IMG/VR virus record: IMGVR_UViG_3300009374_000001
Location: 1 to 64,000 of that record
DNA from: a virus
DNA length: 64,000 nucleotides
Strand: one strand, 5' to 3'
The notes under the pieces were generated by a model, which saw only the letters and a program-made list of their open reading frames with translations, was not told the DNA's origin and ran no database searches. Positions 18,282 through 59,795 of the stretch are shown piece by piece; position 1 is the first letter of the stretch, and each line of letters starts with the position of its first letter. A program made the translations under genes and the position numbers.

Positions 18282-20069
18282 ATGGGAGATATAGTACTGA
18301 CAACAGCGGGTTTACCAATAAGCGAAGGCGGATACGCATTACTTCGTGAATTAGAAAATGGTGAACTTTATAACACAGAGACCAGTATGTCATATACTGT
18401 ATCAGAAATAGCAGATGTTGTTTTAGGCTATTTTGATGCATACAATTTTGATAATTTTTCTCAATTACCAGATACTGAAGGAATACCTGCAGGCTCTCCT
18501 GTCGTGTTAGAGAATACCTCATTTCACTTAACTTGGGCCGAAGCATTGACCACTTGGGAAAATTTAGATACAAACGGATTAATAACATATTCTTTTACTA
18601 TGGACAATTTACAGGTCGGAACAGTGTTTGGCATAGAGAATAAAGCAACAGGTGAAAAAGCAGAAACCACAATGATTGATGGAGATTCTATTAAAAATAT
18701 ATTTGATAAAATTGTTGCAACAAATGCAAACTTTTTAAGTTCATTCAATATTTCCTTTATGGATGAAAGCGGTGATGGAAATGATGATACGATGCTCTTA
18801 AAAAGAAATACTTCTGTGCATGCAGATATCGACTTAATAGCATATCCAAGGTATAAAGGAGAAGGGAGACCTGCTTTATTGTTAACAGTTGATTCTTCTA
18901 CGAACATTAATACATGGGAAAGTATTGGGAATGGTAATTTTTATGAAGTAGAATGGTTTATTGAAAAAGAAAGCAATGAGTATGAAGATTTTTACTATGA
19001 ATCTAGAGGGCTAATATCAACGCACAATAAACTTGCATTAATATTGCCATACCCAGGCAATTATAATGTAATTATGAAGTTGTATGACTCATTTAATAAT
19101 GTTGTTTTAAATCACAATAAAGAAAGCATTACTGTACACCCATACGAAGCTGAAATAGCTGGAGTATATAAAACACTTGGAGATGAAGTTACATGGGAGA
19201 ATGCAAAATATAGCTGGGAAGACTTTACATCAACATGGGAATTACCATTTTTACCAAAAGATATGCCGAGAGAAGAACTTAAATACTTGTATGGAAGCTT
19301 AAGTAGAAGTGGCTTTCCTGCTAGTGATAACCTTGATATGGCAATGTCATTAAGATATATAGATGATAGCGATGATGGGTTTTCTACACTCCCTGGTCCT
19401 TATAGATGGGATAACTTAGAGGATGCAACATGGGAAGATACTAAGCATATTTGGTGGGATGCAACTCTGTTAGGGATTAATACTCCAGCCTCTTTTAGAA
19501 TTAACACTGTTAGTAATGGAGGTACTTTAAGTATTGTTCAGCAGTTACCTATCCCAGATATTGGGACGATAGAATTTACGAGTAATATTCTTTCAGATGC
19601 AGTAAATCTATTAAATGCATCAACAGCACCAGTATTTAGTAAGTATGAGTATAAACTTATAATTGATACAGATACTGGCGTTGAATACTTTATACTTGCG
19701 ATTGCTAAAGAGCTTGGGGAAAGCGGAGATTGGTATCATATAGAACCAAATAACATTGAGCTAAGTCATTTAAACTTACACAAAGATTTAGGTTATACGC
19801 AGAATAATTCAATTATATTTGAAGAACACCAAGAATTACCAAAGCTTACCCATGTTGTATTTTCTGCTGACCATTCTAGAATACCTGGAAAGACGAAAGC
19901 TAAATGGACATTGAATTACAATGATAATATAAGCGAGGATATATATTCAAACAGTAAATACTTTTCTTATCTTTTTAAGAAAGCTGGTAATTATACATTA
20001 TCTTTAGAATTAGAAGATTCAAATGGAAATGTATATAACAAAAATAAAAATATAATAACAATAAAATGA
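18282..20069 (+). CDS. virion structural protein with PKD-like domains and Trp-repeat segments
   Basis: LPYPGNYNVIMKLYDSFNN and FKKAGNYTLSLELEDSNGN; repeated TWE/WD motifs. Confidence 0.6.
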   Translation: MGDIVLTTAGLPISEGGYALLRELENGELYNTETSMSYTVSEIADVVLGYFDAYNFDNFSQLPDTEGIPAGSPVVLENTSFHLTWAEALTTWENLDTNGLITYSFTMDNLQVGTVFGIENKATGEKAETTMIDGDSIKNIFDKIVATNANFLSSFNISFMDESGDGNDDTMLLKRNTSVHADIDLIAYPRYKGEGRPALLLTVDSSTNINTWESIGNGNFYEVEWFIEKESNEYEDFYYESRGLISTHNKLALILPYPGNYNVIMKLYDSFNNVVLNHNKESITVHPYEAEIAGVYKTLGDEVTWENAKYSWEDFTSTWELPFLPKDMPREELKYLYGSLSRSGFPASDNLDMAMSLRYIDDSDDGFSTLPGPYRWDNLEDATWEDTKHIWWDATLLGINTPASFRINTVSNGGTLSIVQQLPIPDIGTIEFTSNILSDAVNLLNASTAPVFSKYEYKLIIDTDTGVEYFILAIAKELGESGDWYHIEPNNIELSHLNLHKDLGYTQNNSIIFEEHQELPKLTHVVFSADHSRIPGKTKAKWTLNYNDNISEDIYSNSKYFSYLFKKAGNYTLSLELEDSNGNVYNKNKNIITIK

Positions 20070-20509
20070 AACTAACAGAAGCACAATTAAGAGAAACTAT
20101 CCAAGAAGTTATTAAAGAAGATGGAATTAATGAAGCTAAAGGTGAAGAAGCTAAAGCAATCTACAAAGAGTTTACAGATCTTGTTAAAGAATATAGAAAA
20201 AAAATTAAAGCTAAGGTTCTTCAAACGGGGCGCGGGTCTCATAGCTTAAACTTTGGCATTGAATCATTTTCTCATCACATTTTACCACAAACCACTGTTT
20301 ATTTTGTAGATGAAAGTATTTTTGGTGATGATTCTCACGAGATAGAAAAAGTAAGTTTTTCTTCAAGCAACATGGAAAGTAAAAAAGATTTAGACGTTTT
20401 CATTACATTACTAAAAGAAATTCAAAACAATTGGGAATTAATGGAAGAATATAAAGAAAAAGAAAAAGAGATTCAAGCAAGACTTGATGACCTACGTACA
20501 AAAAAATAA
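20066..20509 (+). CDS. hypothetical protein with 'LRxxIxE' leader (putative internal head protein)
   Basis: N-terminus MKLTEAQLRETIQEVIKE..INE, shared with 37172, 44459, 45312 and 46330. Confidence 0.6.
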   Translation: MKLTEAQLRETIQEVIKEDGINEAKGEEAKAIYKEFTDLVKEYRKKIKAKVLQTGRGSHSLNFGIESFSHHILPQTTVYFVDESIFGDDSHEIEKVSFSSSNMESKKDLDVFITLLKEIQNNWELMEEYKEKEKEIQARLDDLRTKK

Positions 20510-36782: not shown

Positions 36783-37160
36783 ATGGAAACATTTTTAGAA
36801 TTTATAGAAAAGGAAGATAAAATTTCAGAAGCTGAAGTTGAATCGCTTAATGAAAATCTCAAGTCAGAATTAACTGAAGAAGAAGAAGCTGAAGTTGATG
36901 CAGCAATCGATGCGTTTGTTGAAGAGTACTTAGATAAAGGAAAAACACTCGCGGATCTTAATGAAGAAATGACAAATGAAGGCATACTTGGTGGTATATT
37001 TGGTGGACTTACCGGATTTGCATTTGGCAAGAGTGTAGGAAAGCTTATTGCAAAAGTCTTAGGAATTAGTAAAGGAGTTTTATATGACTTATTGACTTCA
37101 AGACTTGTAGGGGCAGCTCTTGGTGCGGCAATTGGAAATAGTTTAGGTAAGAAAAAATAA
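36783..37160 (+). CDS. glycine-zipper protein with acidic pro-region and capsid-targeting-like leader
   Basis: METFLEFIEKE leader, acidic 66 aa, then GILGGIFGGLTG..GAALGAAIG. Confidence 0.7.
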   Translation: METFLEFIEKEDKISEAEVESLNENLKSELTEEEEAEVDAAIDAFVEEYLDKGKTLADLNEEMTNEGILGGIFGGLTGFAFGKSVGKLIAKVLGISKGVLYDLLTSRLVGAALGAAIGNSLGKKK

Positions 37161-37171
37161 AATAAGATAAA

Positions 37172-37510
37172 ATGAAAACATCAGAATTACAAAAAATAAT
37201 TAGAGAAGAAATTCAAAGCTTGAATGAAGGCAACATTGCAATAAACACTAAGCATAGATATTGGTATGGTGTAGATTCTCCAGAAAAGCAATCTGATAAA
37301 TTTTTAGTTGCAAATAAAGGTGTTGATAAGAAAAAAATAGAAAATAAAGATTTACAAATATGGATTACTAAATTTGTAAAAGATAATAAATTAAAAGATG
37401 CTTGGGATTATAATTGGATTGCAATGTTTTGCTATTCTATGAAGTATACAAATAAATATAAAAACGTTGATTTAGGTAAAATGGACGAATGGGCAAGAAA
37501 AAACCATTAA
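37172..37510 (+). CDS. hypothetical protein with 'ELxKIIREE' leader
   Basis: MKTSELQKIIREEIQSLNE. Confidence 0.65.
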   Translation: MKTSELQKIIREEIQSLNEGNIAINTKHRYWYGVDSPEKQSDKFLVANKGVDKKKIENKDLQIWITKFVKDNKLKDAWDYNWIAMFCYSMKYTNKYKNVDLGKMDEWARKNH

Positions 37511-42396: not shown

Positions 42397-42428
42397 ATAT
42401 ATAATAAAACAAAAAAACAAAACACATT

Positions 42429-42764
42429 ATGAAAAACATAAAATCATTTCAAAGTTTTAGTGACTTTCGCAAGGAAGCTGTTATTAAACAAGTAACTGAA
42501 GAAAAATCTGCACTACAACAAGAATATGCAGATTTCTTTAAAGACCTTCTGAAAAAGTATGACGTAGGCTCTCCTGCTGAATTATCTGATGAAGATAAGT
42601 CAAAATTCTTTGATGAAGTTTCTACTGGCTGGGATAAAGGCGAAGGTAAGAATGCTAAAGGTGAAGAATCAGTTGAAGATGTTGAAGAATCAGTTGAAGA
42701 ATCAGTTGAAGATGCTGAAGAATCACTTGAAGAAGAATTAGATATTGAAATAACTGAAGAGTAA
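42429..42764 (+). CDS. small acidic putative prohead-core/internal protein
   Basis: Leader MKNIKSFQSF; tail EESVEDVEESVEESVEDAEESLEEELDIEITEE. Confidence 0.6.
   Translation: MKNIKSFQSFSDFRKEAVIKQVTEEKSALQQEYADFFKDLLKKYDVGSPAELSDEDKSKFFDEVSTGWDKGEGKNAKGEESVEDVEESVEESVEDAEESLEEELDIEITEE
42663..42735 (+). repeat. coding 9/12-bp repeats (gaagaatcagtt)
   Basis: Repeated gaagaatcagtt and gaagatgtt units. Confidence 0.8.
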
Positions 42765-42768
42765 TATA

Positions 42769-44058
42769 ATGAGGCTTCATTCATTTAAAGATTTTGTAAA
42801 TGAATCTATGTCTAATTTATTAATTGAAGGTGGATCATTTGGCCATCTTCAGCACCCATTTGAAGATTTAACATTATCATTTACAGAGATAAAAGAACTT
42901 ATTGAACTTTCTTTAGATATTGGATTTAGAAGGGAGAACATGGTTTCTGAGAAAACAGATGGCATTCAACTTTCTATTACATGGAAGAATGATGAGATAA
43001 GATTTGCAAAACAGGTTCACACAAAGAAGAATCAGGCAGAGAAAGCTTGGTTTCTTTCTGATGTTAAAGAGCAATGGAAAGCTGTAGCTGATGTGATGTA
43101 TTTAGCAGGCTCGGATTTAAGTGCTGCTCTTTCTGCATTACCTAAGAAATTACTATTAGAAGTATTTGGTGAAGGCAGGAGATTTCTTTCATTAGAAGTT
43201 ATTCATCCGAAGTCATCCAACACAGTTTATTATGGAAGCCCTTTATTAGTATTTCATGGCTTAATAGAATATGATGATAATGGTAAACAAGCCTCTGAGA
43301 TGGATTCTAAGATTACTAAGATGCTTGAGAAAGAACTTGTTAAAGTTAATGCAAATAAACAATCATCGTTTTCTTTACAAGCTCCTAATTTTATTACACT
43401 AGTTAAGTCTGACAAGTTTCCAAAGATAGCAAATACGTTAAAGAGTAACGTGAATAAAATTATAAAAGAAGCTGGGCTTAAAGACAGCGATACTATAGGT
43501 GATTTGCTATATTATTCGTTCGGTGAAAAGATTAAGTCTTGGGCAAATTCATTTAATTATGAAATATCTATAGATGAAATTAATCTACTTTCGCAAAGAT
43601 TTGCTGAACAAAAAGGTTCATACTTTACAGTTAGAGACATGAAGAAAATTGAAAATGAAAAGTTTCAAGAGTGGGTGATTGGCTATTCAGCAAAAGCTGG
43701 CGGATGGAAGGCAGATTGGAAAGATTTTGTTCAGCCAATAGAAACTGTCTTTCTTAAGGTAGGTACAGAAGTAATGCAGCAAATGAGTTCTTATTTAGCA
43801 ACTGATTTAGATGGAAGTAGCGAAGTAATGAGAAAACAATTAGAGGATGCAATTAATGTTATAAACGCGTCTGATAATGCTACAGCTATTAAAAAAGTTG
43901 AAAGTGAAATGAAAAGAATTGAAAACGCGGGTGGCTTAAACAAATTAGTTGCAAGTGAAGGTATAGTTTTTAACTTTAAGGGAAAGCTTTATAAGTTTAC
44001 TGGTCTTTTTGCTCCAATACATCAAATTGTTTCAATCATAAAATTTGGAAAGTTATAA
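42769..44058 (+). CDS. ATP-dependent ligase-fold nucleotidyltransferase (RNA-ligase-like)
   Basis: Motif I EKTDG, III LEVI, IIIa LVFHG, IV EGIVF, V YKF; N-terminal GHLQHPFED. Confidence 0.65.
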   Translation: MRLHSFKDFVNESMSNLLIEGGSFGHLQHPFEDLTLSFTEIKELIELSLDIGFRRENMVSEKTDGIQLSITWKNDEIRFAKQVHTKKNQAEKAWFLSDVKEQWKAVADVMYLAGSDLSAALSALPKKLLLEVFGEGRRFLSLEVIHPKSSNTVYYGSPLLVFHGLIEYDDNGKQASEMDSKITKMLEKELVKVNANKQSSFSLQAPNFITLVKSDKFPKIANTLKSNVNKIIKEAGLKDSDTIGDLLYYSFGEKIKSWANSFNYEISIDEINLLSQRFAEQKGSYFTVRDMKKIENEKFQEWVIGYSAKAGGWKADWKDFVQPIETVFLKVGTEVMQQMSSYLATDLDGSSEVMRKQLEDAINVINASDNATAIKKVESEMKRIENAGGLNKLVASEGIVFNFKGKLYKFTGLFAPIHQIVSIIKFGKL

Positions 44059-44454
44059 ATGGGTATTATTAAAACGTTTGAGAACTTTATTAATGAAAGA
44101 ATAGATTATCTTGAAGTTGCAAGTTCTCTTATTAAGCACTATGGCTTTAATACTAAAGTAAAGTTTGTTAAAAATTTAAAAAATAAAGCTGAATATGATT
44201 GGGATAGTGACACAATAAGATTAAGAACTTCATATAAAACAGAGAAAGATTTTCTTATTACTGTTTTACATGAAATTAATCATGTCAGGGGTGTATATGA
44301 AATGGGTGTTAAGAAATATAAAGATGAATATAAGCATGCAGGTGACATTGCTTTAGCTAATAACGGAGATTTTTATAAAGATAACAGCTTTGAAATAAAG
44401 GCTGAAGATTGGGCACAAAGAGAAGTGAAAAAATGGATAAATAAAATAAAATAA
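44059..44454 (+). CDS. zincin metallopeptidase (HEXXH)
   Basis: TVLHEINH..NSFEIKA. Confidence 0.7.
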   Translation: MGIIKTFENFINERIDYLEVASSLIKHYGFNTKVKFVKNLKNKAEYDWDSDTIRLRTSYKTEKDFLITVLHEINHVRGVYEMGVKKYKDEYKHAGDIALANNGDFYKDNSFEIKAEDWAQREVKKWINKIK

Positions 44455-44458
44455 TAAG

Positions 44459-44728
44459 ATGAAACAATCAGAATTAAGAAAACTAATTAGATTAACAATT
44501 AAAGAGCATATGAATGAAGATTCTTCTGGATCATTTCGGTCTAAGAAGCAAGTAGAACGGTTGACAAAGGGCAAATCTATTCGAGAAACATTTGTAAACC
44601 CATCGGTTGAATATAACGTTACTAACGATGGCGGTATTGTAATTTTTGGTAAAAGAGAAAAAGTTCATTTTACAAAGCAAGACGTTGAAGCTTTAGTAAA
44701 ACAACTTAAAAGAAAAGGGATTGCTTAA
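44459..44728 (+). CDS. hypothetical protein with 'ELRKLIR' leader
   Basis: MKQSELRKLIRLTIKEHMNE. Confidence 0.6.
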   Translation: MKQSELRKLIRLTIKEHMNEDSSGSFRSKKQVERLTKGKSIRETFVNPSVEYNVTNDGGIVIFGKREKVHFTKQDVEALVKQLKRKGIA

Positions 44729-45315
44729 TGATTTTAGAGTTTAAACAATTCGTAGAGTCTATCCAGTCTGAACATACCGGAGAGAAGGTAATTATATTCC
44801 CTGGGAGATTTCAGCCATTTCATAATGGGCATCTTAAAGCATTTGAAAAAGCTTATAAAATGTTCAAGTTAAGAGTTATACCTATACAAATAGTTAGTAA
44901 GAATAAGAACTCTCCAATTAAAGACAAAAAGCTCTTACAAGATATGGGTAATGCATTAGCAAAAGAGAATAAGAAGTTTATTGCAGATATACTGGTAAAG
45001 CCTGACAATGTTATGGGAAATATACCGCAAATGATTAAATGGCTTAGAAGCATTGGTTATAATCCAATGGGCATGGGAACTGGTGAAGATAGATATAAAG
45101 GCTATAAAGGCCAAATTGATTATCTTTTATCAGATAAGTCAGATGTGCCTACAGAAGAATTTGAATTAAAGGTAGTAGATGATAGAACAAGTGGTGCAAG
45201 TGGAACCGCAGTAAGACATGCATTTCAAGATGATGACGCAGATGCACTTAAAGCGATGATTCCAGAGGTACTATTCTTTAAATTTTATAATAAAATAAAA
45301 AAAGCAATACAATGA
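44728..45315 (+). CDS. HIGH-superfamily nucleotidyltransferase (cytidylyltransferase/NMNAT-like)
   Basis: FPGRFQPFHNGH, GEDR and SGTAVR motifs. Confidence 0.85.
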   Translation: MILEFKQFVESIQSEHTGEKVIIFPGRFQPFHNGHLKAFEKAYKMFKLRVIPIQIVSKNKNSPIKDKKLLQDMGNALAKENKKFIADILVKPDNVMGNIPQMIKWLRSIGYNPMGMGTGEDRYKGYKGQIDYLLSDKSDVPTEEFELKVVDDRTSGASGTAVRHAFQDDDADALKAMIPEVLFFKFYNKIKKAIQ

Positions 45316-46319
45316 AGATAACAGAACAGAAATTGAGAAAACTTATACAAGAAAACATTAAGACCCTTACTGAAAAACTTAAAAGATCATCTAGTGAATA
45401 TGATAAATTTGAACAATGGCTAATCACTCTTGATCAAATGACAGTTGGTCATATACTTGACACGTTTGGGACAAAGTTACCAGACGGAGCAGATTTTGAT
45501 ACACCAGGCTATTTCCAAGATGAAGAACTTGACTACGACGATGCTTACGATTTCTTTAGGAGTAACATGGGTGCATCTTGGGTTCAAGATATGGAAAAGT
45601 TTTATAGCAAAAATAAATCTAAATGCGATAAATACACAGAAAGATATACAAAGCAACTTAAAATCTTTAACGAAAATCATTTAAATGAAAAAGACGTATG
45701 GTCTATTAAAGGCTTAGACTCTTCAGATCAACAGGATGTTAATTTAATGAAGCGCGCATTTGAACTTGCAAAAGTTAAAATTATAAAGATAGAAAAATAT
45801 AACGATAGAGCTTACTTTATTACTTTAATTGCAAAAGATGGCAAAGCCATTATTGATACAGAGATTGATACTTTAAGTAATGTCTTTTATATGAATGATA
45901 ATAGAGGCAGAAATAAAATCGGCACACTGCATAGAACAAGTGAAGTTGTTAAGGGTATTAAAGCTCTTGCAAAACTTCCAGGATTTGGACAAACAAGCTT
46001 AGTTAAAGTTAAAGAGTCTTTGGACGAAACATATAAGCTTCGCAAAATTATTAGAAAAGAACTTCAAACTTTGAATGAAGCTAAGATGAGCAAGAAAGAA
46101 TATCAAGAAGCAGCAAAAGAATTTGTTAATCAATGGGAAGATGATTTTAAACAAAGAATCAAAGATGACGGCGGATTTGATTATGAAGAAATGACATATG
46201 ACACTGCTCAAGCTAATAACTTATGGAACGATGGACCTAAGATGGACGCAGATTGGTTATATGACTATATAGAAAAAGAATTAGAAAAGCGACAGTGGTA
46301 TAAAAAATACACAAAATAA
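45312..46319 (+). CDS. modular hypothetical protein with two 'LRKxIxE' leader copies
   Basis: MKITEQKLRKLIQE..LTE; internal HLNE; YKLRKIIRKELQTLNE. Confidence 0.65.
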   Translation: MKITEQKLRKLIQENIKTLTEKLKRSSSEYDKFEQWLITLDQMTVGHILDTFGTKLPDGADFDTPGYFQDEELDYDDAYDFFRSNMGASWVQDMEKFYSKNKSKCDKYTERYTKQLKIFNENHLNEKDVWSIKGLDSSDQQDVNLMKRAFELAKVKIIKIEKYNDRAYFITLIAKDGKAIIDTEIDTLSNVFYMNDNRGRNKIGTLHRTSEVVKGIKALAKLPGFGQTSLVKVKESLDETYKLRKIIRKELQTLNEAKMSKKEYQEAAKEFVNQWEDDFKQRIKDDGGFDYEEMTYDTAQANNLWNDGPKMDADWLYDYIEKELEKRQWYKKYTK

Positions 46320-46329
46320 AAATAATACA

Positions 46330-46557
46330 GTGAAAGAGCAAGAATTAAGAAAACTTATTAGAAAAGAGCTTAACGAACGTATTTCTGGTTATGATGAATT
46401 TGATGTAGCAGTTAAAATTGATTCTGCTATGGAAAAGCTTGACAAAAATATGGGAGTTGAAGTATTTGCAAAGGGTATTGCTAATATGTTTAATGACGTA
46501 TATGGGAAAGAATATGCAAAAGATTTTTATGAAAATATTAACAAAAAATATCAATGA
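46330..46557 (+). CDS. small hypothetical protein with 'ELRKLIR' leader
   Basis: GTG start, MKEQELRKLIRKELNE. Confidence 0.65.
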   Translation: MKEQELRKLIRKELNERISGYDEFDVAVKIDSAMEKLDKNMGVEVFAKGIANMFNDVYGKEYAKDFYENINKKYQ

Positions 46558-47435
46558 TTAAAACTTTTAAAGAGTTCTTGAAGCTTTATGAAAGCGGTAA
46601 TGCTATTGATGACGTAAGACCTATTTTAGGTAGAGAGATACCTGAAACCTTAGAGCATGTAGAAAGGGATCTTTTAAATGCAGTAGGTTTAGATGGTTTT
46701 GATATAGATGCAGCAGTTATAGGTTCAGCTGGAAAGAAAGGCGATGATATAGAATCAGGAGATATTGATATTGCGGTAAGTATTGATAAACTTGCAGGTG
46801 AAAACTCAACTTCTATCAATGAAGTATTAAAGTTTTTAAATATGACTTTAAAAGCTGCAGGTTATGATACTGCAGTTAATTATGGATTCAAACAAGTTTC
46901 AGTGCCATTTCCTATTAAAGGAGATAAAGCCAATGGATATTGTCAAGTTGACTTAATGCTTTCGGATAGCTTAGAATGGTCAAAATTTATGTATCATAGT
47001 CCAGATTTTACCAAGACAGAGTCAAGATATAAAGGTGCATACAGAAACTTATTAATGATGGCAATTGCAACAGAGTCTAAAAAAGAAGCCACTAAGAAAC
47101 TAGACACTGGAGAAACCGTTGAATATGAGCAGTTAGTCATTAGATTAAATACAGGTCTTGTTAAAGTTAGAAAGTCTTTACAGGGTAAACGTGGCTTGGT
47201 TAAAACACCTAAACTTTTAAAAGATTTTGATAGAGTTGTAAGCAATGTTCCAGATGAAGTAGCTGAAGCTTTATTTGGTGAAGGCGTTAAAGCTAAAGAT
47301 ATAATGACATTTGAAAAATGCTGGGATCTTTTTAATTCAAAAACATTTCCATATAAAAATAAAGAAGATATTATTATACAAAAATTTGAAATATATTTAA
47401 GTAAATCAAAGTTACCATTCCCTGAGGAACTATAA
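46554..47435 (+). CDS. pol-beta superfamily nucleotidyltransferase
   Basis: IGSAGKK..SGDIDIAV..QVDLM (GS, DxD and third Asp). Confidence 0.8.
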   Translation: MIKTFKEFLKLYESGNAIDDVRPILGREIPETLEHVERDLLNAVGLDGFDIDAAVIGSAGKKGDDIESGDIDIAVSIDKLAGENSTSINEVLKFLNMTLKAAGYDTAVNYGFKQVSVPFPIKGDKANGYCQVDLMLSDSLEWSKFMYHSPDFTKTESRYKGAYRNLLMMAIATESKKEATKKLDTGETVEYEQLVIRLNTGLVKVRKSLQGKRGLVKTPKLLKDFDRVVSNVPDEVAEALFGEGVKAKDIMTFEKCWDLFNSKTFPYKNKEDIIIQKFEIYLSKSKLPFPEEL

Positions 47436-48337
47436 TGAAAATTGAATCATATTCAAATTATACAACTCTACAAGAGGCTAAGCTTTATGGCTTTACTATT
47501 AAACAACTGTTAAACAGTACCTTAAAATTTAAAGGTAAGACTCTAATTTATTTTGATACTGAAACACTAGGGCTTAAGCCTCATGTAGATTATATTCAGC
47601 TTACGCAAGTTGCAGCAATTGCGTATGATGGCTCAACTATGAAAGAACTTGATTCGTTTAACACTAAGGCTAAATTAGGAGACCCCGCAAAGCATTTATT
47701 AAAACCTGATTCTGATGAAAGAAAAGGATGGGAAGAAAGACAAAAGGCAAGAGGTAAAAGTAAAGGGTTAAGCAATCCTGATGAACTCTTAAAAATGACA
47801 AGATACGGCGATGAGGGTGTTGATTTTATAGAAGAGAAAAAATCAATAGAAGATTTTATTTCATTTATATCTAAGTTTAAAGATCCTATTTTAATTGCGC
47901 ACAATGCACCCTTTGATATGAAATTTATGCATGTAAGAGCTAAATTATTTGATTTAAAGTTCCCTAAAGCTGAAGTATTAGATACATTAAAATTGTCAAG
48001 ACTTTATTTTGTTCCTCTTTTACAAGCTGCTGAGAATAGCAAAGAGTTAGAAAGTATTTTAACAGCTTTATCTAATAAGTTAAAAACAGGAGAACGTGGA
48101 AACAAAGTTTCATCGACGCTTGGAAATTTAGGAAAGGCGTTAGGCGTAAGTGTTGATTCATGGCATGACGCAAAAGCTGATGTTGAGATGTTAATGCAAA
48201 TTGTTGAAAGAATGAAAGAATTCTTTACCCAATACATTGATATAGATATTAGTAAGGAGCATCAGCATGCTGCAAAACTCGATGCTCTTTCTAAAAAGCC
48301 TTGGTGGTGGTCTAAGAAAAAGAAATACAGGATATAA
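47435..48337 (+). CDS. DEDDh 3'-5' exonuclease (DnaQ/RNase T-like)
   Basis: FDTETLG, AHNAPFD, WHDAKADV. Confidence 0.9.
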   Translation: MKIESYSNYTTLQEAKLYGFTIKQLLNSTLKFKGKTLIYFDTETLGLKPHVDYIQLTQVAAIAYDGSTMKELDSFNTKAKLGDPAKHLLKPDSDERKGWEERQKARGKSKGLSNPDELLKMTRYGDEGVDFIEEKKSIEDFISFISKFKDPILIAHNAPFDMKFMHVRAKLFDLKFPKAEVLDTLKLSRLYFVPLLQAAENSKELESILTALSNKLKTGERGNKVSSTLGNLGKALGVSVDSWHDAKADVEMLMQIVERMKEFFTQYIDIDISKEHQHAAKLDALSKKPWWWSKKKKYRI

Positions 48338-48744
48338 TGAAAATTAAATCATATCCAAATTATATTACAGAAAATCCAGACAAGATCTATGTTGGTAAGG
48401 TAAATGAGTTTGATTATTTAAAATCAGAGCTTGATAATGCTAAGAAAGTTTTTAAAGAATTACAGAAGATGTACCCAGATATTCCAAAGTTTCCATTAGT
48501 CTTTAAAGATTTAAAGGGAAGAGGGAGTGGGTTTTTAACTACGACTAGATTAAGAGGCGGCAAGTTTATTTTTATAGATAAAATGACTATCGATAATACA
48601 GGTTTAACTAGTAACCCAGCGGACTATGCAGTGTGTCATGAATTTGCTCATGCAATTCTTGCACATACAAAGCAATCGCTTGCTCATAGTAAAGCACACG
48701 ACAAGCTTACATATAAACTTGCAAAAAAATTTAATTTAGTATGA
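48337..48744 (+). CDS. SprT-like zincin metallopeptidase
   Basis: VCHEFAH..AHSKAH. Confidence 0.7.
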   Translation: MKIKSYPNYITENPDKIYVGKVNEFDYLKSELDNAKKVFKELQKMYPDIPKFPLVFKDLKGRGSGFLTTTRLRGGKFIFIDKMTIDNTGLTSNPADYAVCHEFAHAILAHTKQSLAHSKAHDKLTYKLAKKFNLV

Positions 48745-49805
48745 AAATTAAATCATATACAAACTTCATTAATGAAGGTGGCTGGTCAAGTGCAAAGACA
48801 CAATCTACTGTATTAACCCCACATGTTTTAAAGCTTGCACATGAAACATTACAAAGTATTTTTAAAGAGTTTAATGCCTGGCTTGATAAAGAAGGAATGC
48901 CTCCGATGAAACCAATACGGGCAGTTGGCTCAGGCAGTTATTGGGAAGATGATTTAGTTAATCAACCAGATAAATTATATGGTGATATTGATTACTTATT
49001 TGAATATCCGATTTTAGAGTTTGATCCAAATCCTACAAATAATAGAAAAAATGAATTAGATACAATTAAGCTTTATAATGAAATGCTTTTAGATTGGATA
49101 AAGGCGTTTAAGCCAAATTCTGTTGATTATGAAGAGTCTGTTAAGATATCAAGCCCAACAAGTATTAAGCTTTTAATAATTCCAAAAGATGACATGTTTA
49201 TACAAGCAGACATTTTAATTACTAGTGGCATCTATAAAGATTGGGCGATAGGTAGATATACACCAGTAAAAGACATAAAAGGTTTTGTTATTGGCTATTT
49301 GTATAAAGCAATTGGCTTGACTTTAACCATGAGCTTTCTTGATAGAGGAGTAAGAGCAAAGTTTATTGATGGTAACTTAGTTAGTTTTAGAAAGAGAAAA
49401 AATGTCGAAGAGATGATTATTAGTTTAGACTTTGGCAACTTCTTATACGATATTGCTGAATGGGCAATGGAATTTGATGGTAAGAATAAAAAGAAGATGA
49501 AAGTACATAAGCTCCTAAAGCAGCAAAAAGGTTTAACAAGAGATAATGTTACACTTGAAAAATTCTGTGTAGGCATTAAGGGTCTTGCATATACATTAGA
49601 AATGAACGACTTATTACACATATTCTCTCTTTCAAGTGCAGATGACATGATAAACAAGACAGAAGAAAATTATATAAATTCAATATCTGATGTAAGGCAT
49701 AGCAGTAAGTTTAAGAAAGCTGAAACAGCTCATGCTAGGGCTGCTATGGAGAAGATATTTAAATTCATTGATTATGGAATAGAAACAGTAAGTAGAAGTT
49801 TATGA
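48741..49805 (+). CDS. pol-beta superfamily nucleotidyltransferase (second paralogue)
   Basis: VGSGSY..YGDIDYL..IQADIL. Confidence 0.75.
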   Translation: MKIKSYTNFINEGGWSSAKTQSTVLTPHVLKLAHETLQSIFKEFNAWLDKEGMPPMKPIRAVGSGSYWEDDLVNQPDKLYGDIDYLFEYPILEFDPNPTNNRKNELDTIKLYNEMLLDWIKAFKPNSVDYEESVKISSPTSIKLLIIPKDDMFIQADILITSGIYKDWAIGRYTPVKDIKGFVIGYLYKAIGLTLTMSFLDRGVRAKFIDGNLVSFRKRKNVEEMIISLDFGNFLYDIAEWAMEFDGKNKKKMKVHKLLKQQKGLTRDNVTLEKFCVGIKGLAYTLEMNDLLHIFSLSSADDMINKTEENYINSISDVRHSSKFKKAETAHARAAMEKIFKFIDYGIETVSRSL

Positions 49806-52039
49806 AATCACTATATAAAGAAAAGAACTTAGACAAATTATTTAAACAGAGTCTTTTAGTAACAGAAAAGATTGACGCGCCTAGAATTAAGGTGAAGAAA
49901 GTTAACGATGGTTTTGAAATATTTAAGGCAAATTCAAATACGGCATTAAACGTAGTTGATAGAACTTTAACATCATTATACGAAAATGCGTATGAGCATT
50001 TTTCAAGTTTTTGGAAAGATATGATTGAAGAAGTCCCAGATAATTACATATTTGAAATGTATTATATGACTAATACAAAGCCAGTAAGAACTGAATATGA
50101 CAGGCTACCGAAGAATAATCTAATACTTATATCAATTCAAGTAATGGAGAATGATAAAGTTAAAAAGATTATTAGAGAGCCTAAGATACTAAATGAATGG
50201 GCAGATAAATTTGAAATAGAACACCCGCCTATTTTATTTAACGATAAATTAAGTGAGAATCAGAAATTTAAGTTAAAAGAGTTGCTATCACAGAGCAGTA
50301 AAGATGTTTTTGGGCTATTCAGTAATAGTTCATTTACAGCACATATTATGTCAGTGCTAGACCCTAGAATTCATGAGATGACACTTAACAAAGATACACA
50401 TAAGAATACTAATGGATTTATTTTTACATTTCATGCAGGAAAGGTTGTTTCTAATCTGCTACTACAGAGCTCTCTTAAAGAAAGTAATGATTCATATACG
50501 CCTAATGATTCATACGACTTAGTATTACTAGACTTAGTAGAATATATGATAAAAGATGAATCATGGGAGCATATTTTGCTTAAAGAACATGGTGAAGATT
50601 TAAGATATTTAGAGTGTATCTCAAATATTTTTAATATGTATATGGAAAAGAATATGCATAGACTTTTAGGAATGAGTTTAGAGAAAATGGATTTTGCAAA
50701 TAAGCCAGAATTTAAACTTAATAAAAAAAATATTAAGAACAAAAGAACTAACGAATTATTAGACATTCATGTTTTAAGTGAAATCTTTCAGGCAATGTTG
50801 GGTAGTTTCAGAAAGCATAGAAGCAAAGAAACTACACTAATTTCAAATGCTGCTATTACAGAAATAAATTTATTGATTGATAAGATTAATGAAAAGATAG
50901 GAAAAGAACCAGATATTATAGAGGACAGCGATGAAGTTAAAGATTTTGAAAGTTTTATGATTAGTGAAGGTAGAGATGAAATAATTAATAATATAAATCT
51001 TTCATTGAAAGACTTGGAGATTGATCAATTAAATTATATCAATACATACATTAATAAACAAGGATTAAGTTCAAAAATTAAAGAGATTTTTTCAGGCTTA
51101 GGCTTAACGACTGGTATAGATAAAGTAGTTAATGGCTTTTTATCTTTATTAGTTGGCGCAGGCGGATCATTAGAAGATAATATAGAAATAGTTGATAAAT
51201 TATCAATAGACGGGACGTTATTCAATGATTTAGATATTGGGAAGGTGTCAAATTTTAAGAATAATTTAATTACTAATAGCAAATTTCACACAAAGCTTAT
51301 CAAGACTTTTATTGACTGGGAGCCTAAAAAAATAGATAAATCTGCAATTGGAAAAGGAGAAGCATTTTTAATTGCTTTATTGGGCGGACGAAAAGCAGAA
51401 CATGGAGATATTAAAATAGGTGATAATAATTATGAAGTTAAAGGTAGAGGGGCTCGATTAAAAGCGCAAAGGGGCTATGGTACTTTTATAAATAATGAAA
51501 AAACTTTCATTAAAGATTTTTCTAGTGTTGTTAACTATGGGTTTACACCAAAAGAGAAAATAAATAATAAATATTTAGATAAAAAGAAAAATATACTACC
51601 CTTTAAAGAAATATCTAAAAACATTAACAATATTAATTTTACTGATAAAGGATTATCAATGTATAGAGAGTTTATATTAAATGCAGATAACCCACTTAAA
51701 GCTGTAGAAGTATTACAAGAGTTGTTTAGAAAGATTTTTGTAAATGTTAGTAATTTTAATGAATTATCATTTTTAGATACTTTAAATTCATCCGCTTCAG
51801 AAAAAAAGATGCTTATGGATTTTAAATTAGAGTACAGCAGATTTATATTTGATTATTATAAGAAACAAGAAAAATGGGATTATTTAATGTTTATAAATTT
51901 AGATAACGCTAATTATGTCTGCATTGAAAAATCTAATGAATTTGTGAATTTAATAAAAAATGGAAAAATAAAAATAAATGTAAGCCATAGCTGGACCCAA
52001 ACACAAAATAATGTTCCACAATATACATTAGTGGCTTAA
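49802..52039 (+). CDS. degenerate ligase-fold domain fused to a PD-(D/E)xK-like nuclease domain
   Basis: N-terminal VTEKIDA..PPILF..NGFIF; C-terminal GKGEAFL..GDIKIGDNNYEVKG. Confidence 0.55.
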   Translation: MKSLYKEKNLDKLFKQSLLVTEKIDAPRIKVKKVNDGFEIFKANSNTALNVVDRTLTSLYENAYEHFSSFWKDMIEEVPDNYIFEMYYMTNTKPVRTEYDRLPKNNLILISIQVMENDKVKKIIREPKILNEWADKFEIEHPPILFNDKLSENQKFKLKELLSQSSKDVFGLFSNSSFTAHIMSVLDPRIHEMTLNKDTHKNTNGFIFTFHAGKVVSNLLLQSSLKESNDSYTPNDSYDLVLLDLVEYMIKDESWEHILLKEHGEDLRYLECISNIFNMYMEKNMHRLLGMSLEKMDFANKPEFKLNKKNIKNKRTNELLDIHVLSEIFQAMLGSFRKHRSKETTLISNAAITEINLLIDKINEKIGKEPDIIEDSDEVKDFESFMISEGRDEIINNINLSLKDLEIDQLNYINTYINKQGLSSKIKEIFSGLGLTTGIDKVVNGFLSLLVGAGGSLEDNIEIVDKLSIDGTLFNDLDIGKVSNFKNNLITNSKFHTKLIKTFIDWEPKKIDKSAIGKGEAFLIALLGGRKAEHGDIKIGDNNYEVKGRGARLKAQRGYGTFINNEKTFIKDFSSVVNYGFTPKEKINNKYLDKKKNILPFKEISKNINNINFTDKGLSMYREFILNADNPLKAVEVLQELFRKIFVNVSNFNELSFLDTLNSSASEKKMLMDFKLEYSRFIFDYYKKQEKWDYLMFINLDNANYVCIEKSNEFVNLIKNGKIKINVSHSWTQTQNNVPQYTLVA

Positions 52040-52065
52040 ATATATAAAAAAACAAATATAAAATT

Positions 52066-52413
52066 ATGACTAAAATTTATGAAAACTTTGAAGACTTTGT
52101 TTTTAATGAACTTAATAAAGAAATTGATATTGAACTAGTTGATGAAAGAGTTGAGGTTAAGCGTAAATACACAGATAAATATCCATCTAAATCCATTAAC
52201 GCAAAAGCAAGAGTTAGAAGTGCAGTGCTAAGTGCAATGAAAGATGGGATAGTTACTGAAGAGGAACTTGATAATATTATAGCTGCAGCACAGGGCAGTA
52301 AAGCATGGAAGCGTAAAAATACTAAGCTTTTTAAAGTTACAGAAGATGGCATTAAACTTTCAAAATTTGGTTCACGAATCTATAGAAGAACTCTAGTTAC
52401 AGAGGAAAAATAA
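52066..52413 (+). CDS. hypothetical basic protein with capsid-targeting-like leader
   Basis: MTKIYENFEDFVFNE, then a Lys/Arg-rich domain. Confidence 0.65.
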   Translation: MTKIYENFEDFVFNELNKEIDIELVDERVEVKRKYTDKYPSKSINAKARVRSAVLSAMKDGIVTEEELDNIIAAAQGSKAWKRKNTKLFKVTEDGIKLSKFGSRIYRRTLVTEEK

Positions 52414-53741: not shown

Positions 53742-56243
53742 ATGACAGTAATTGACGTTGGGCATTCATCAGAATTATTAATTGACTATTTTAATGGAGA
53801 TGAATTAGCAGCAAATACTTTTTTGAATAAATATGCACTTCGAGATGAAGATGGTAATTTACTAGAGCATCACCCAGATGAAATGCATATGAGACTTTCA
53901 AGAGAATTTGCAAGAATAGAACGAAAGTATAAAAACCCATATAGTAAAGATGAGATATATGATTTACTAAAAGACTTTAAGTATCTTGTACCACAAGGAA
54001 GTCCGATGTTTGGGATTGGTAATAAGCACCAAGTCATTTCATTGTCAAATTGCTTTGTGATTGGTAATGGTGCTGATTCTTATGGCGGTATTACAATGGT
54101 TGATGAAGAGCAGATACAGCTTATGAAACGAAGAGGTGGTGTAGGCCATGATCTTTCTCATATAAGACCTAATAAAACTAAAGTGCATAATTCTGCAATG
54201 ACCTCAACCGGTTTAAAGCCATTCATGCAGCGATTTTCAAATTCAACTAGAGAAGTTGCACAAGGAGGTCGAAGAGGAGCACTAATGCTCACGCTTGATA
54301 TTAGACATCCAGACGTTGAAAGTTTTATTGATGCAAAGATGAATAAGATTGACATAACTGGTGCTAATATTTCATTAAAATTAAGTGATGAATTCATGAG
54401 AGCTGTTGATGCTAATAAAACATTTAAGCTTCAATATCCAGTAGAATCTGAAAATCCGAAGATAGAACTTGATATTGACGCAAAGTCTTTATGGGATCAT
54501 ATTATCAATAATGTTTGGTCAAGCGCAGAACCTGGTATATTTTTCTGGGATAAAGTGCTAAGCGAGTCACCAGCAGATATGTATGCAGAAGAAGGCTTTA
54601 GAACTATCTCCAGCAATCCCTGCGGTGAGCTCCCTCTCTGTCCTTATGATTCTTGTAGACTTTTAGCTATAAATTTATCAAGTTATGTTGAAAACGAATT
54701 TACAGAAGATGCAAGTTTTGATTTTGATTTATTGGCAGAACACACAAAGATTGGTCAAAGACTTTTAGATGATATGATTGACTTAGAAATTGAAAAGATT
54801 AATGCAATTTTAAGAAAGATAAGTTCTGACCCTGAGAACAATAGTATTAAAAGAGTTGAAAGAGAACTTTGGCAAAAGATAAAAGAAAAGGCTATACAAG
54901 GAAGAAGAACTGGGTTAGGTGTAACTGCAGAAGGCGATATGCTTGCATATATGAATATGCAATATGGCTCAGATGAGGCAATAAAATTCTCAGAACAGGT
55001 TCATAAGTTAATAGCGGTTAGTTCATACGTAAGTTCTATAGAGCTTGCTAAAGAAAGAGGCTCATTTCCAATTTGGGATTATGACACAGAGAAAGAAAAT
55101 GATTTTCTTAAACGAATCGATATGAATTTATCTATGCAACAAAGAAAAGATTATAAAAGATATGGTAGGAGAAATATTGCAAACCTAACTCTTGCGCCTA
55201 CTGGTACTGTAAGCATGATGACTCAGACTACATCAGGGATTGAACCGGTATTTCTTATTCAATATACAAGAAGAAAGAAAGTAAACCCAAATGAAATTGC
55301 AACATCAGATTTTGTAGATGATCTAGGCGATGCATGGACAGAGCATACTGTATTTCATAATGGTTTTAAAAGATGGATGAATATAAATGGGATATTTGGT
55401 GAGCTTAATGATGAAGAGATAGAAAAATTTGTAAAAGAATCCCCATATTACAAAGCAACATCAAATGACATTAACTGGGTTCAAAAAGTTAAAATGCAAG
55501 GCGTAATACAAAAATGGATAGATCACTCAATTTCAGTTACAGTGAATGTACCACAAGATACTAAAAAGTCAACAGTAAATGAGGTTTATATGACTGCATG
55601 GAAAGCTGGATGTAAAGGTGTAACTTTATATAGAGAAGGGAGTAGAAGTGGTGTACTAATTGCAAAAGAAAAGAAAGAAGAAGAAAAGTTTGAAAAAATG
55701 GCAGCAGTTGAAAGACCTAAGACATTAGAGTGCGATATACACCACAGAATAGCAACGGGGGAGGCGTGGTTGGTTATTGTAGGAAAGTTATTGGATAAGC
55801 CTTATGAAATATTTGCATTTAGAAAATGGACAGAAGATGAAGAGTCTGAAGATAAATTTAATCTGCCACGTTATATCAAGCTAGGCAGACTTGAAAAGAG
55901 GTCTCATGGGAAATATGATTTAATTTGTGGTAAAAACGATAACTTCATCGTAAAGGATATTACAAACCTGTTTAAATCAGAGGAAGAAGAAGCATTAACA
56001 AGATTAATTTCATCTGCGCTTCGACATAGAATGGGCGTTGAATATATCGTCGATCAATTAAATAAAGTCCCATCGAATATTACAAGTTTTAGTAAAGTTG
56101 TTGCTAGAACGCTGAAACAATATATCACAGAAGATATAGAATTAATAAATAAAACATGTACAGAATGCGAAGATCCTGACGGACTAATTATTCAAGATGG
56201 ATGTTTAAGTTGCAAAAGTTGTGGTTTTAGTAAATGTGGATAA
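53742..56243 (+). CDS. nrdJ: class II (B12-dependent) ribonucleotide reductase
   Basis: SNCFV, GGRRGALM, SNPCGE, APTGT, GCKGVTLYREGSR, C-terminal Cys-rich ribbon; no adjacent beta-subunit gene. Confidence 0.9.
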   Translation: MTVIDVGHSSELLIDYFNGDELAANTFLNKYALRDEDGNLLEHHPDEMHMRLSREFARIERKYKNPYSKDEIYDLLKDFKYLVPQGSPMFGIGNKHQVISLSNCFVIGNGADSYGGITMVDEEQIQLMKRRGGVGHDLSHIRPNKTKVHNSAMTSTGLKPFMQRFSNSTREVAQGGRRGALMLTLDIRHPDVESFIDAKMNKIDITGANISLKLSDEFMRAVDANKTFKLQYPVESENPKIELDIDAKSLWDHIINNVWSSAEPGIFFWDKVLSESPADMYAEEGFRTISSNPCGELPLCPYDSCRLLAINLSSYVENEFTEDASFDFDLLAEHTKIGQRLLDDMIDLEIEKINAILRKISSDPENNSIKRVERELWQKIKEKAIQGRRTGLGVTAEGDMLAYMNMQYGSDEAIKFSEQVHKLIAVSSYVSSIELAKERGSFPIWDYDTEKENDFLKRIDMNLSMQQRKDYKRYGRRNIANLTLAPTGTVSMMTQTTSGIEPVFLIQYTRRKKVNPNEIATSDFVDDLGDAWTEHTVFHNGFKRWMNINGIFGELNDEEIEKFVKESPYYKATSNDINWVQKVKMQGVIQKWIDHSISVTVNVPQDTKKSTVNEVYMTAWKAGCKGVTLYREGSRSGVLIAKEKKEEEKFEKMAAVERPKTLECDIHHRIATGEAWLVIVGKLLDKPYEIFAFRKWTEDEESEDKFNLPRYIKLGRLEKRSHGKYDLICGKNDNFIVKDITNLFKSEEEEALTRLISSALRHRMGVEYIVDQLNKVPSNITSFSKVVARTLKQYITEDIELINKTCTECEDPDGLIIQDGCLSCKSCGFSKCG

Positions 56244-58649: not shown

Positions 58650-59795
58650 ATGAACTTAAATGACTTATCAAAAGAAGATCTAAAGCACCAATACGATATA
58701 GCAGAATCAGAATCTTTAAAATTTAGAAATTATGAACAAGCTGTAAAGTTAATTTTAAACTCAATGTATGGAGCTTTTGGCAATAACTATTTTCATTTTT
58801 TTAATATTGACTTAGCAGAAGCAATTACACTACAGTGCCAAGATGCAATATTGTATACTGAGGTTGCTATCAATAAATATTTTAATGATTTTTGGCATAA
58901 AGATAAGGAATTACATAAATTATTAGATATTGAAGTTACTGATTCAATTAAGGACGCCGTAGTTATATATATTGATACAGATTCTTGTTATGTTTCATTT
59001 GAAGAAGTTTATCAAAATGCAAATTATGATGGTGATGTAACAGAATTCATTAAAGACATATATGAATATAGATTAAAAAACTATATTAAAAATGTACTTT
59101 ATAAATATTCGGATAAATGGAACACTGATTCTTTTTTAAAGTTTGAATTAGAAACTATTGCATATTCTGCAATTTGGCTATCAAAAAAGAAATATATTCA
59201 AAACATTGCATGGGAAGATCCTGGCATTGATCATAACAAGTTAGAATTTATTAAAGCTACAGGTTTTGAAATTGTCCAATCATCAAGCCCTAGCTTTGTA
59301 AGAACTAAATTAAAAGAAGCTTTAATTTTAATGTTTAAAGATGATAATCCAAATTTAAGTGAACTTGTTTCATTTCTTAAAGATGTTAAGAAAGAATTTA
59401 AGTTAGCAAATATTGAAGAAATTAGCTTTAGTAAACGAGTCAATAACATTGAAAAATACATTATAGATGATTATTCACATTTTGAAGTTGCAAAATCTTG
59501 CCCAATAAATGTAAGAGCAGCAGGGTATTATAATTATCTTTTAAACAATTCAGAATATAAGAGTAAGTATCATAATATACCAAGTGGTGAAAAAGTTAGA
59601 ATATATTTTACAGATGACAATTTATCTAACGTATTTGCATTTATGCCTGATGAGCATCCGTATGAATTTGCACCTAACGTTGACTATGATTTGCAATTTG
59701 AAAAGTCAATATTAGATCCGCTGAACAGAGTTATTAAAGCAGTAGGTTTAAAGACTCTTAATTCGAACTTAATTTATGCAAAAACACTTTTTTAA
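58650..59795 (+). CDS. family B DNA polymerase, C-terminal half (motifs B and C, thumb)
   Basis: KLILNSMYG, YIDTDS, KKKY, GEKV; C-terminal KTLF resembles a clamp-binding tail. Confidence 0.9.
   Translation: MNLNDLSKEDLKHQYDIAESESLKFRNYEQAVKLILNSMYGAFGNNYFHFFNIDLAEAITLQCQDAILYTEVAINKYFNDFWHKDKELHKLLDIEVTDSIKDAVVIYIDTDSCYVSFEEVYQNANYDGDVTEFIKDIYEYRLKNYIKNVLYKYSDKWNTDSFLKFELETIAYSAIWLSKKKYIQNIAWEDPGIDHNKLEFIKATGFEIVQSSSPSFVRTKLKEALILMFKDDNPNLSELVSFLKDVKKEFKLANIEEISFSKRVNNIEKYIIDDYSHFEVAKSCPINVRAAGYYNYLLNNSEYKSKYHNIPSGEKVRIYFTDDNLSNVFAFMPDEHPYEFAPNVDYDLQFEKSILDPLNRVIKAVGLKTLNSNLIYAKTLF

Follow-up and report, generated by a model that had tools for sequence, protein, structure and literature searches.

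The capsid-targeting sequence (CTS) of phage T4 has hitherto been seen as something special to three small internal proteins of the T-even phages. The T4 sequence is MKTYQEFIAE (PMC8442874), and suppressor studies, as PMC9026906 summarizes them from Mullaney and Black 1996, attribute targeting to positions 4 and 7 and processing to positions 8 and 10. Some phages are also known to carry enzymes in the head. Examples are T4 Alt, a packaged ADP-ribosyltransferase, and the ejection proteins of the giant phages phiKZ, 201phi2-1, and SPN3US; an S77-related prohead protease trims them after glutamate (x-x-E), and they are delivered together with the DNA (PMC5694885). In addition, cytidyltransferase/NMNAT-like proteins were found by mass spectrometry in virions of the cyanomyoviruses S-CBWM1, S-SZBM1, S-SCSM1, and S-CREM2 (PMC10665884). 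Here, we describe a gene cassette at positions 42429 to 52413 of a 64,000-nucleotide stretch of viral DNA (the window; positions 1 to 64,000 of IMG/VR record IMGVR_UViG_3300009374_000001) in which unrelated proteins share a short N-terminal leader. The best-supported explanation of this leader, and in our view the probable one, is a T4-type capsid-targeting propeptide that is cleaved by a protease.

Like the CTS of T4 IPI, IPII, and IPIII and of T-even Ip4 and Ip5, the cassette leader is N-terminal, 10 to 14 residues long, and portable among unrelated proteins. In both cases, aromatic residues at positions i and i+3 are followed by [ILV]-x-E, and both genomes encode a gp21/S77 protease. Residues 4, 7, 8, and 10 of the T4 sequence are Y, F, I, and E (Y..FI.E), a spacing equal to that of the cassette leader skeleton. 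By sequence, the leader thus has the features of the CTS class, as a shared short putative N-terminal propeptide with aromatics at i and i+3 and an [LI]-x-E end in a phage that also has a gp21-type protease. However, it is 2 to 3 residues longer ahead of the first aromatic, and the cargo consists mostly of enzymes of 130 to 430 residues, whereas the T4 internal proteins are small and basic and show no sequence homology to it; no cassette protein belongs to a Pfam or PHROG internal-protein family. Tagged genes number 10 in 75 kb here and about 38 and 160 to 180 in related huge phages, compared with 3 to 4 in T-even phages. Moreover, the leader here corresponds to a unit of a protease-fused scaffold repeat, whereas T4 makes gp21 and gp22 separately and its gp22 lacks a tandem repeat of this kind. 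Propeptides of the giant phages mostly exceed 100 residues, carry an A/S-x-E motif, and share no short tag, in contrast to the short stereotyped tag with an [ILV]-x-E end described here; the likeness of the cassette to these head-carried enzymes is a predicted one. With the cyanomyovirus virion proteins, for which no leader or processing is reported, the likeness is known at the superfamily level, through the PF01467 domain of the product of gene 44728 (genes are named by their first position in the window); 44728 had no cyanophage match at E below 1e-6.

The window is the first 64 kb of one 75,247-bp contig with a GC content of about 31%, in which every gene lies on the + strand and the regions upstream of genes are A-rich and devoid of Shine-Dalgarno sequences. 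It represents part of the genome of a T4-type marine huge phage. Baseplate, sheath-like, and tail genes are found at about 2.5 to 36 kb, and genes for primase, helicase, ribonucleotide reductase (RNR), dUTPase, and polymerase-type proteins lie between 38 and 63 kb, while the final 11 kb, beyond the window, encodes gp46/47, the gp55 late sigma factor, gp2, the gp20 portal, a 629-residue S77 (gp21-type) protease open reading frame (ORF), and the gp23 capsid protein. The closest genomes are those of uncultured huge phages: LR756500 (462 kb; helicase 52% identical), whose region from 337 to 225 kb is collinear with the contig, followed by LR756502 (642 kb) and the Lak phages. Since contig DNA is present in seven seawater metagenome runs from two studies, we regard the phage as marine. 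The features of the cassette, together with one outlying leader gene, are listed here.

42397 to 42410, + strand: promoter-like motif ATATATAATAAAAC, 19 nucleotides upstream of the first cassette gene.
42429 to 42764, + strand: 111-residue acidic protein with leader MKNIKSFQSFSDF; phrog_28651, unknown function.
42769 to 44058, + strand: 429-residue RNA-ligase-like nucleotidyltransferase (by ligase motifs, model, and fold search) with leader MRLHSFKDFVNE.
44059 to 44454, + strand: 131-residue protein with leader MGIIKTFENFINE and an HEINH motif; possible zincin.
44459 to 44728, + strand: 89-residue protein with a second, helical leader, MKQSELRKLIR.
44728 to 45315, + strand: 195-residue cytidylyltransferase-like (NMNAT-like) enzyme (PF01467) with leader MILEFKQFVE.
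45312 to 46319, + strand: 335-residue protein with helical leader MKITEQKLRKLIQE and an internal copy, YKLRKIIRKELQTLNE, at residues 240 to 255.
46330 to 46557, + strand: 75-residue protein with helical leader KEQELRKLIRKE and a GTG start.
46554 to 47435, + strand: 293-residue probable Pol-beta-type nucleotidyltransferase (GS...DIDIAV motif) with leader MIKTFKEFLKLYE.
47435 to 48337, + strand: 300-residue DEDD (RNase T/DnaQ-type) exonuclease (PF00929, E = 1e-10; phrog_192) with leader MKIESYSNYTTLQE.
48337 to 48744, + strand: 135-residue protein with leader MKIKSYPNYITE and an HEFAH motif; no family match in Pfam or PHROG.
48741 to 49805, + strand: 354-residue Pol-beta-superfamily nucleotidyltransferase with leader MKIKSYTNFINE, which abuts the conserved core start GGW.
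49802 to 52039, + strand: 745-residue protein without leader; last gene of the operon.
52040 to 52053, + strand: second promoter-like motif ATATATAAAAAAAC, with one mismatch to the 13-mer described below; precedes 52066.
52066 to 52413, + strand: 115-residue protein with leader MTKIYENFEDFVFNE.
36783 to 37160, + strand: outlying leader gene, 125 residues, beginning METFLEFIEKE.

The original prediction named ten ORFs with a shared leader and proposed a scan of all N-termini, with shuffled N-termini for comparison. All ten ORFs and their N-termini are present at the positions listed, and the scan confirmed the enrichment. A tight motif, [ST][FY]xx[FY] beginning within the first 10 residues, has 10 matches in nine proteins. 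The internal rate predicts 0.45 (P = 6e-11), and in shuffled proteins the count averaged 0.76 and never exceeded 5. Eight of these nine proteins belong to the predicted set; the ninth, 9360, is a chance match. The leaders of 44728 and 52066 contain no S/T, yet they fit [FY]xx[FY]...E; all ten leaders carry [FY]xx[FY], with [FY]xx[FY][ILV]xE as the extended skeleton, and seven of them end in a canonical [ILV]xE within 14 residues. Nine of the ten carriers fall among 14 consecutive genes (42429 to 52413), with 36783 as the outlier. The motif is confined to N-termini, with the exception of the scaffold repeat of the protease ORF, and the helicase, primase, RNR, polymerase-type, and tail/baseplate proteins are all without the leader, as had been claimed. 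The same family emerged when all N-terminal 18-mers of the contig and the LR756500 proteome were clustered without any motif input: at thresholds of 30 to 38, one dominant family of 45 was obtained, whereas internal control segments gave clusters of at most three (at a threshold of 26, everything percolated into one meaningless cluster). Chance or composition as the source of the motif was ruled out by the shuffles, the internal-segment controls, and the genomes of PTm1 and Lak-A1, described below.

Shared gene starts could also be features of the nucleic acid, such as an AU-rich initiation enhancer suited to a host without Shine-Dalgarno pairing, or blocks of recombination homology. Leader codons are indeed slightly AT-richer than other gene starts (0.77 versus 0.73), and the adjacent trio 47435, 48337, and 48741 is nearly identical in DNA across the first 8 to 9 codons. 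This trio looks recently copied, judging by its DNA, while the other leaders do not: in most of them, synonymous sites differ and the upstream DNA is unrelated between genes, and the motif is kept in a fixed amino-acid register. Moreover, synonymous codon choice at leader residues equals background usage, and in LR756500 it is shifted toward G/C-ending codons, as would be expected if the peptide and not an AU-rich translation element were under selection. The motif is also missing from PTm1 and Lak-A1, which infect Bacteroidota and are just as rich in AT. A nucleic-acid origin is thus largely refuted, and we consider it very improbable.

The prediction had suggested that a gp21-type protease gene be sought, and one was located 19 kb downstream of the cassette, just outside the window (PF03420 Peptidase_S77, 50.8 bits with a cutoff of 27; phrog_207). 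Its motifs LGELDHP and SSRAAG correspond to LGELNHP and SSRGLG of gp21 of the T4-type phage RB6. Several internal copies of the tight motif occur in this ORF (contig positions 71502 to 73391) and in no other protein. Past the protease domain (residues 1 to 190), residues 235 to 345 form about six tandem 14-residue units of the pattern x-Y-x-x-Y-L-[GAK]-E-N-L-x-x-x-x, and the repeat is kept in two related IMG/VR contigs. Similarly, the LR756502 scaffold has eleven near-perfect units, I-x-YSEY[IL]AE-N-LDKN, and the best 120 of more than 3,100 protease-scaffold homologues carry 4 to 16 copies (median 7) with a period of 14, at residues 200 to 500 and none in the protease domain. Because the cassette leader matches one unit of this repeat (Y-x-x-Y-[LIV]-x-E), it can be regarded as a scaffold-repeat unit placed at an N terminus. 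As a mimic of the repeat, the leader might be incorporated into the scaffolding core, and protease cleavage of leader and scaffold might take place at the same glutamate. A predicted complex of protease-scaffold residues 1 to 350 (42-row alignment) with the first 30 residues of the 48741 family scored 0.00, which speaks neither for nor against binding. In the literature searched, we found no report of the identity between tag and scaffold repeat.

RB6 served as a positive control. Clustering of its whole genome returned one family of three, and its members are annotated as Ip4, IpI, and Ip5; the maturation site of RB6 gp23, FGSFLTE65 followed by AEIGG, also fits the leader skeleton. We also observed that RB6 gene 61.1 (17644 to 17808), located by the primase gene, encodes a 54-residue product that begins MKTYKEFIKE, a near-perfect CTS, and is not annotated as an internal protein.

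The boundary between leader and enzyme can be read from homologues. The conserved core of the 354-residue nucleotidyltransferase (48741) starts at GGW. Among 177 representative homologues, 24 start MGGW, directly after the point where the 48741 leader ends, and 59 carry extensions of 2 to 30 residues that are either like the cassette leader, of a short MRxxEFIxE form, or helical. These extensions have Glu at P1 in 57 of 59 and L/I/V at P3 in 57 of 59; by sequence, their ends are the gp21 cleavage consensus. In the 429-residue family (42769), the core starts EGGAYGH; some homologues begin there (MEGGAYGH), about 18 have a leader of the cassette type, and others have different N-terminal domains. 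As leader presence varies in both families, the leader is an optional, detachable module. In the AlphaFold model of 48741 (mean predicted local distance difference test score, pLDDT, 94.3), residues 1 to 11 are the sole segment below 50. Likewise, in the model of 42769 (pLDDT 88.5), residues 1 to 4 and 12 to 24 fall below 50. The 354-residue enzyme had no relatives in the IMG/VR related-locus search or among GenBank phages.

A removable extension does not by itself imply packaging. The leader could instead serve timing or activation, as a propeptide removed by the prohead protease or by some other protease specific for Glu; the enzymes would then be masked until late or marked for destruction and never packaged. 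The [LIV]xE boundary and the leaderless homologues fit this as well, and the 48741 leader abuts the catalytic core directly. However, the T4 gp21 protease acts inside the prohead, the two aromatics that are most conserved here serve targeting and not cleavage in T4 according to the summary in PMC9026906, and a leader predicted to be disordered is unlikely to mask an active site. We therefore judge a role in timing alone improbable.

The tag is far more abundant in the related huge phages. In LR756500, 21 proteins start MK[YF]IxxYxxF[LIV]xE, compared with 1.55 expected (P = 4e-17), and clustering gives about 38; they include five leucine-rich-repeat proteins, a DUF2201 metallopeptidase with a VWA-like domain, a polynucleotide-kinase 3'-phosphatase, and the 42769 orthologue. 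In LR756502, 180 of 889 proteins fall into the N-terminal cluster and 160 are found by regular expression (160 to 180, or 18 to 20% of the proteome), and the latter 160 represent 151 unrelated families past residue 22. The leaders there take the forms MKHLKxYNES, MK[HY]LKxYKIFES, and MxIKKYNxFINEE and are densest in the first 120 kb. Tagged LR756502 proteins with Pfam matches comprise a T4-Rnl1-type ligase, a PolyA_pol/CCA-type nucleotidyltransferase, and LigT/Acb1-like, NUDIX, methyltransferase, PPK2, lysozyme, ankyrin, SET, and HNH proteins, with no core replication or tail protein among the tagged set. We also noted the locus 223781 to 227917 in this genome of 160 to 180 leader-family proteins. 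In a related contig (L002), the leader stands on a CCA-type nucleotidyltransferase encoded beside the portal gene.

Two other genomes lack both elements. Tenacibaculum phage PTm1 (29.7% GC) has a protease of the same family, and its ORF-300 carries a Trp-based scaffold repeat, E-x-W-[IL]-x-x-x-[FY]-T-K-E-L-S-E-G-I-E; clustering revealed no N-terminal leader family (largest cluster, 2), and a search for a Trp-type leader with a guessed DNA pattern was uninformative. In Lak-A1, whose genes were called with TAG as a sense codon, the scaffold half is acidic, and neither the Tyr repeat nor a Tyr-type leader family is present. Small N-terminal families of its own were observed in Lak-A1, one of nine proteins (MNKNIKKLLESLFDDD-like) and one of six (M..KKALYE.IM), both unrelated to the Tyr-type leader. 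The leader family and the Tyr repeat thus co-occur in three genomes and are both absent from two.

This distribution bears on a further alternative, in which the leader is a tag for a partner other than the prohead, such as a modifying or processing enzyme (for example, the small HExxH proteins), a chaperone, or a cytoplasmic assembly or compartment, and its likeness to the scaffold reflects a common helical packing motif. The tagged share of the LR756502 proteome, above any known packaged set, speaks for such a partner, as does the presence of two HExxH proteins in the cassette. However, these HExxH proteins are tagged themselves and their family assignment is subthreshold, and the Tyr-repeat protease-scaffold protein is the only candidate partner that co-occurs with the tag across the genomes examined. 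Moreover, S77 proteases have a specificity that the [LIV]xE end fits, and homologues without a leader start precisely behind the Glu. We consider another partner unlikely, although less so than a timing propeptide.

On the preferred reading of the leader as a T4-type capsid-targeting propeptide, the tagged proteins would be made from a promoter type common to head genes and would be built into the prohead together with its scaffolding core. Cleavage after the leader Glu by the S77 (gp21-type) protease would follow, as it would between scaffold repeats, and the mature enzymes would remain in the head and exit with the DNA at infection. The capsid-targeting character claimed by the original prediction gains support from the T4 positions, the S77 gene, the scaffold repeat, the homologue boundary, the disorder in the model, the peptide-level selection, and the control genomes; packaging, cleavage, injection, and action before transcription we infer only by analogy with T4 and from the cyanophage virion proteomes (PMC10665884).

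Several observations weigh against this reading. No packaged set known so far comes near the extent of tagging in LR756502, which may indicate a broader role for the tag, or another one. It is also not evident why packaging would be needed, because early expression would serve RNA-repair enzymes just as well. The authors of the cyanophage proteomics themselves warn that abundant proteins may copurify with virions (PMC10665884). Within the cassette, the leaders of 44728 and 52066 have Phe rather than I/L/V at P3, and the leader of 42429 has no [ILV]xE until residue 24 (VTE). In the capsid protein, the conserved LYE43 aligns with the internal IFE38 of T4 and not with the E65 maturation site; placing its maturation site by alignment failed in this way, and the site remains a guess. 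Finally, since the promoter-like motif TATATAATA also precedes the gp55 and dUTPase genes, the label "late" is unjustified.

This motif has 10 sites on the + strand and 1 on the - strand, and seven of the 10 lie in the intergenic 2% of the contig, 11 to 38 nucleotides before genes. The exact 13-mer TATATAATAAAAC is found at three places only, namely the cassette, the portal operon (contig position 69508), and the protease/scaffold gene (contig position 71464), a distribution compatible with coexpression of the cassette and head genes. As its internal gaps are all shorter than 18 nucleotides, the cassette block is probably one operon. In a seawater metatranscriptome library, ten short contigs (at least 99% identical) cover parts of 39.3 to 55.3 kb, including the 5' ends of 42769 and 46554; these do not show transcription, because DNA carry-over is possible, and they give no level or timing.

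The enzyme labels of the original prediction stood for the RNA-ligase-like, cytidylyltransferase-like, and Pol-beta-type nucleotidyltransferases and for the DEDD exonuclease, while the peptidases proved weak, with HExxH motifs and one subthreshold Pfam match. In 42769, K62xDG, E143, FH163G, E397GxVF, and K409 are invariant or nearly so in an alignment of 38 homologues, and Foldseek gave a probability of 0.99 to Rnl3, T4 Rnl1, and Trl1, with TM scores of only 0.2 to 0.27. By its motifs (I, III, IIIa, IV, and V) and modeled fold, 42769 is a member of the RNA ligase/covalent nucleotidyltransferase superfamily. Its LR756500 orthologue (27% identity) retains the leader, and the one cultured phage with a match, Microcystis phage Mel-JY01, has it as a cytidylyltransferase fusion. 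In 48741, GS63-64, D71, GD82xD84, and QxD157 are invariant in 59 homologues, and the best Foldseek hits are Pol lambda/beta (E = 3e-4, probability 1.0); its G-S, DxD, third carboxylate, and modeled palm fold identify it as a Pol-beta-superfamily nucleotidyltransferase. 44728 matches PF01467 with E = 3e-8, over the cutoff, and the domain begins at residue 23. For 46554, the Atlas neighbors are virus-only clusters, some named nucleotidyltransferase or NTP_transf_2, which we take as a lead only, and for 49802, the Atlas leads to viral RNA_ligase/CTP_transf_like clusters. A phmmer search of 42769, 46554, 48741, and 49802 against PDB sequences returned nothing usable. Of the two possible zincins, 44059 (HEINH) matches Pfam MPTase-PolyVal (PF18818) with E = 9e-4 and 19.7 bits, under the curated cutoff of 27.5, and 48337 (HEFAH) has no profile match.

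Domain fusions connect several of these enzymes. A 653-residue LR756500 protein (265948 to 267909) joins a homologue of the N-terminal half of 49802 to a C-terminal cytidylyltransferase, the 44728 domain, and many 42769 homologues are also fused to a cytidylyltransferase domain. Because of these Rosetta-stone fusions, enzymes of the 42769, 44728, and 49802 types probably cooperate on RNA ends or nucleotides. The predicted cargo is an RNA-end-processing set (ligase-like, cytidylyltransferase-like, two Pol-beta-type nucleotidyltransferases, and a DEDD exonuclease) together with small proteins, and a plausible role for it, as infection begins, is repair or counter-defense when the host attacks RNA or nucleotide pools.

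A second leader, helical and of the MKxSELRKLIREE type with an I-[RQ]-E end, was observed on six small or medium proteins, encoded at 20066 to 20509, 37172 to 37510, 44459 to 44728, 45312 to 46319, and 46330 to 46557 of the window and at 69535 to 69819 of the contig. In some homologues of the 354-residue nucleotidyltransferase, a helical extension replaces the cassette-type leader directly before GGW (for example, ...LIREILLHE, then GG). This leader was not found in LR756500, LR756502, or PTm1. The 335-residue protein (45312) holds an internal copy, YKLRKIIRKELQTLNE, of its own helical leader and, judging from this arrangement, may consist of two pieces of cargo linked through a protease-type site. 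The product of the outlying gene 36783 has an acidic middle with several x-N-E and x-T-E sites and a C-terminal part that is Gly-rich, hydrophobic, and basic, and is reminiscent of a masked membrane-active peptide.

Elsewhere in the window, an 833-residue RNR-like ORF (53742 to 56243) matches two separate LR756500 ORFs (614 and 390 residues), and a 381-residue ORF (58650 to 59795) likewise matches two LR756500 ORFs, so that the split or fused structure of both genes differs between relatives. A partial ORF at the window start (13 to 150) contains two copies of the direct peptide repeat VKGEIDDVKDA.

While the T4 CTS and internal proteins are already known, the enzymatic cargo, the scale in huge phages, and the match of the tag to a scaffold repeat are different here. 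More tentatively than for the leader itself, and with doubt prevailing, we propose that huge T4-type marine phages may load a large, modular "starter proteome" into the capsid (6 to 20% of genes, mostly unknowns together with RNA-repair and counter-defense enzymes), addressed by one unit of the 14-residue scaffold repeat. The cargo would copolymerize with the protease-scaffold fusion and be freed by the cut that dismantles the scaffold, and the gain or loss of about 12 codons would switch packaging on or off for any gene. If the capsid-targeting reading is correct, uncultured marine huge phages use the T4 device far more widely to preload enzymes, and hundreds of "hypothetical" genes could for the first time be assigned a function, that of virion cargo. 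What the T4 CTS binds is a question to which the match between tag and scaffold repeat offers a concrete, testable answer. This match also suggests a general way to recognize packaged proteins from sequence alone: they would carry, at the N terminus, an imitation of the scaffold repeat of their own phage, with a protease site behind it. Such tags could also serve to load foreign proteins into phage capsids.

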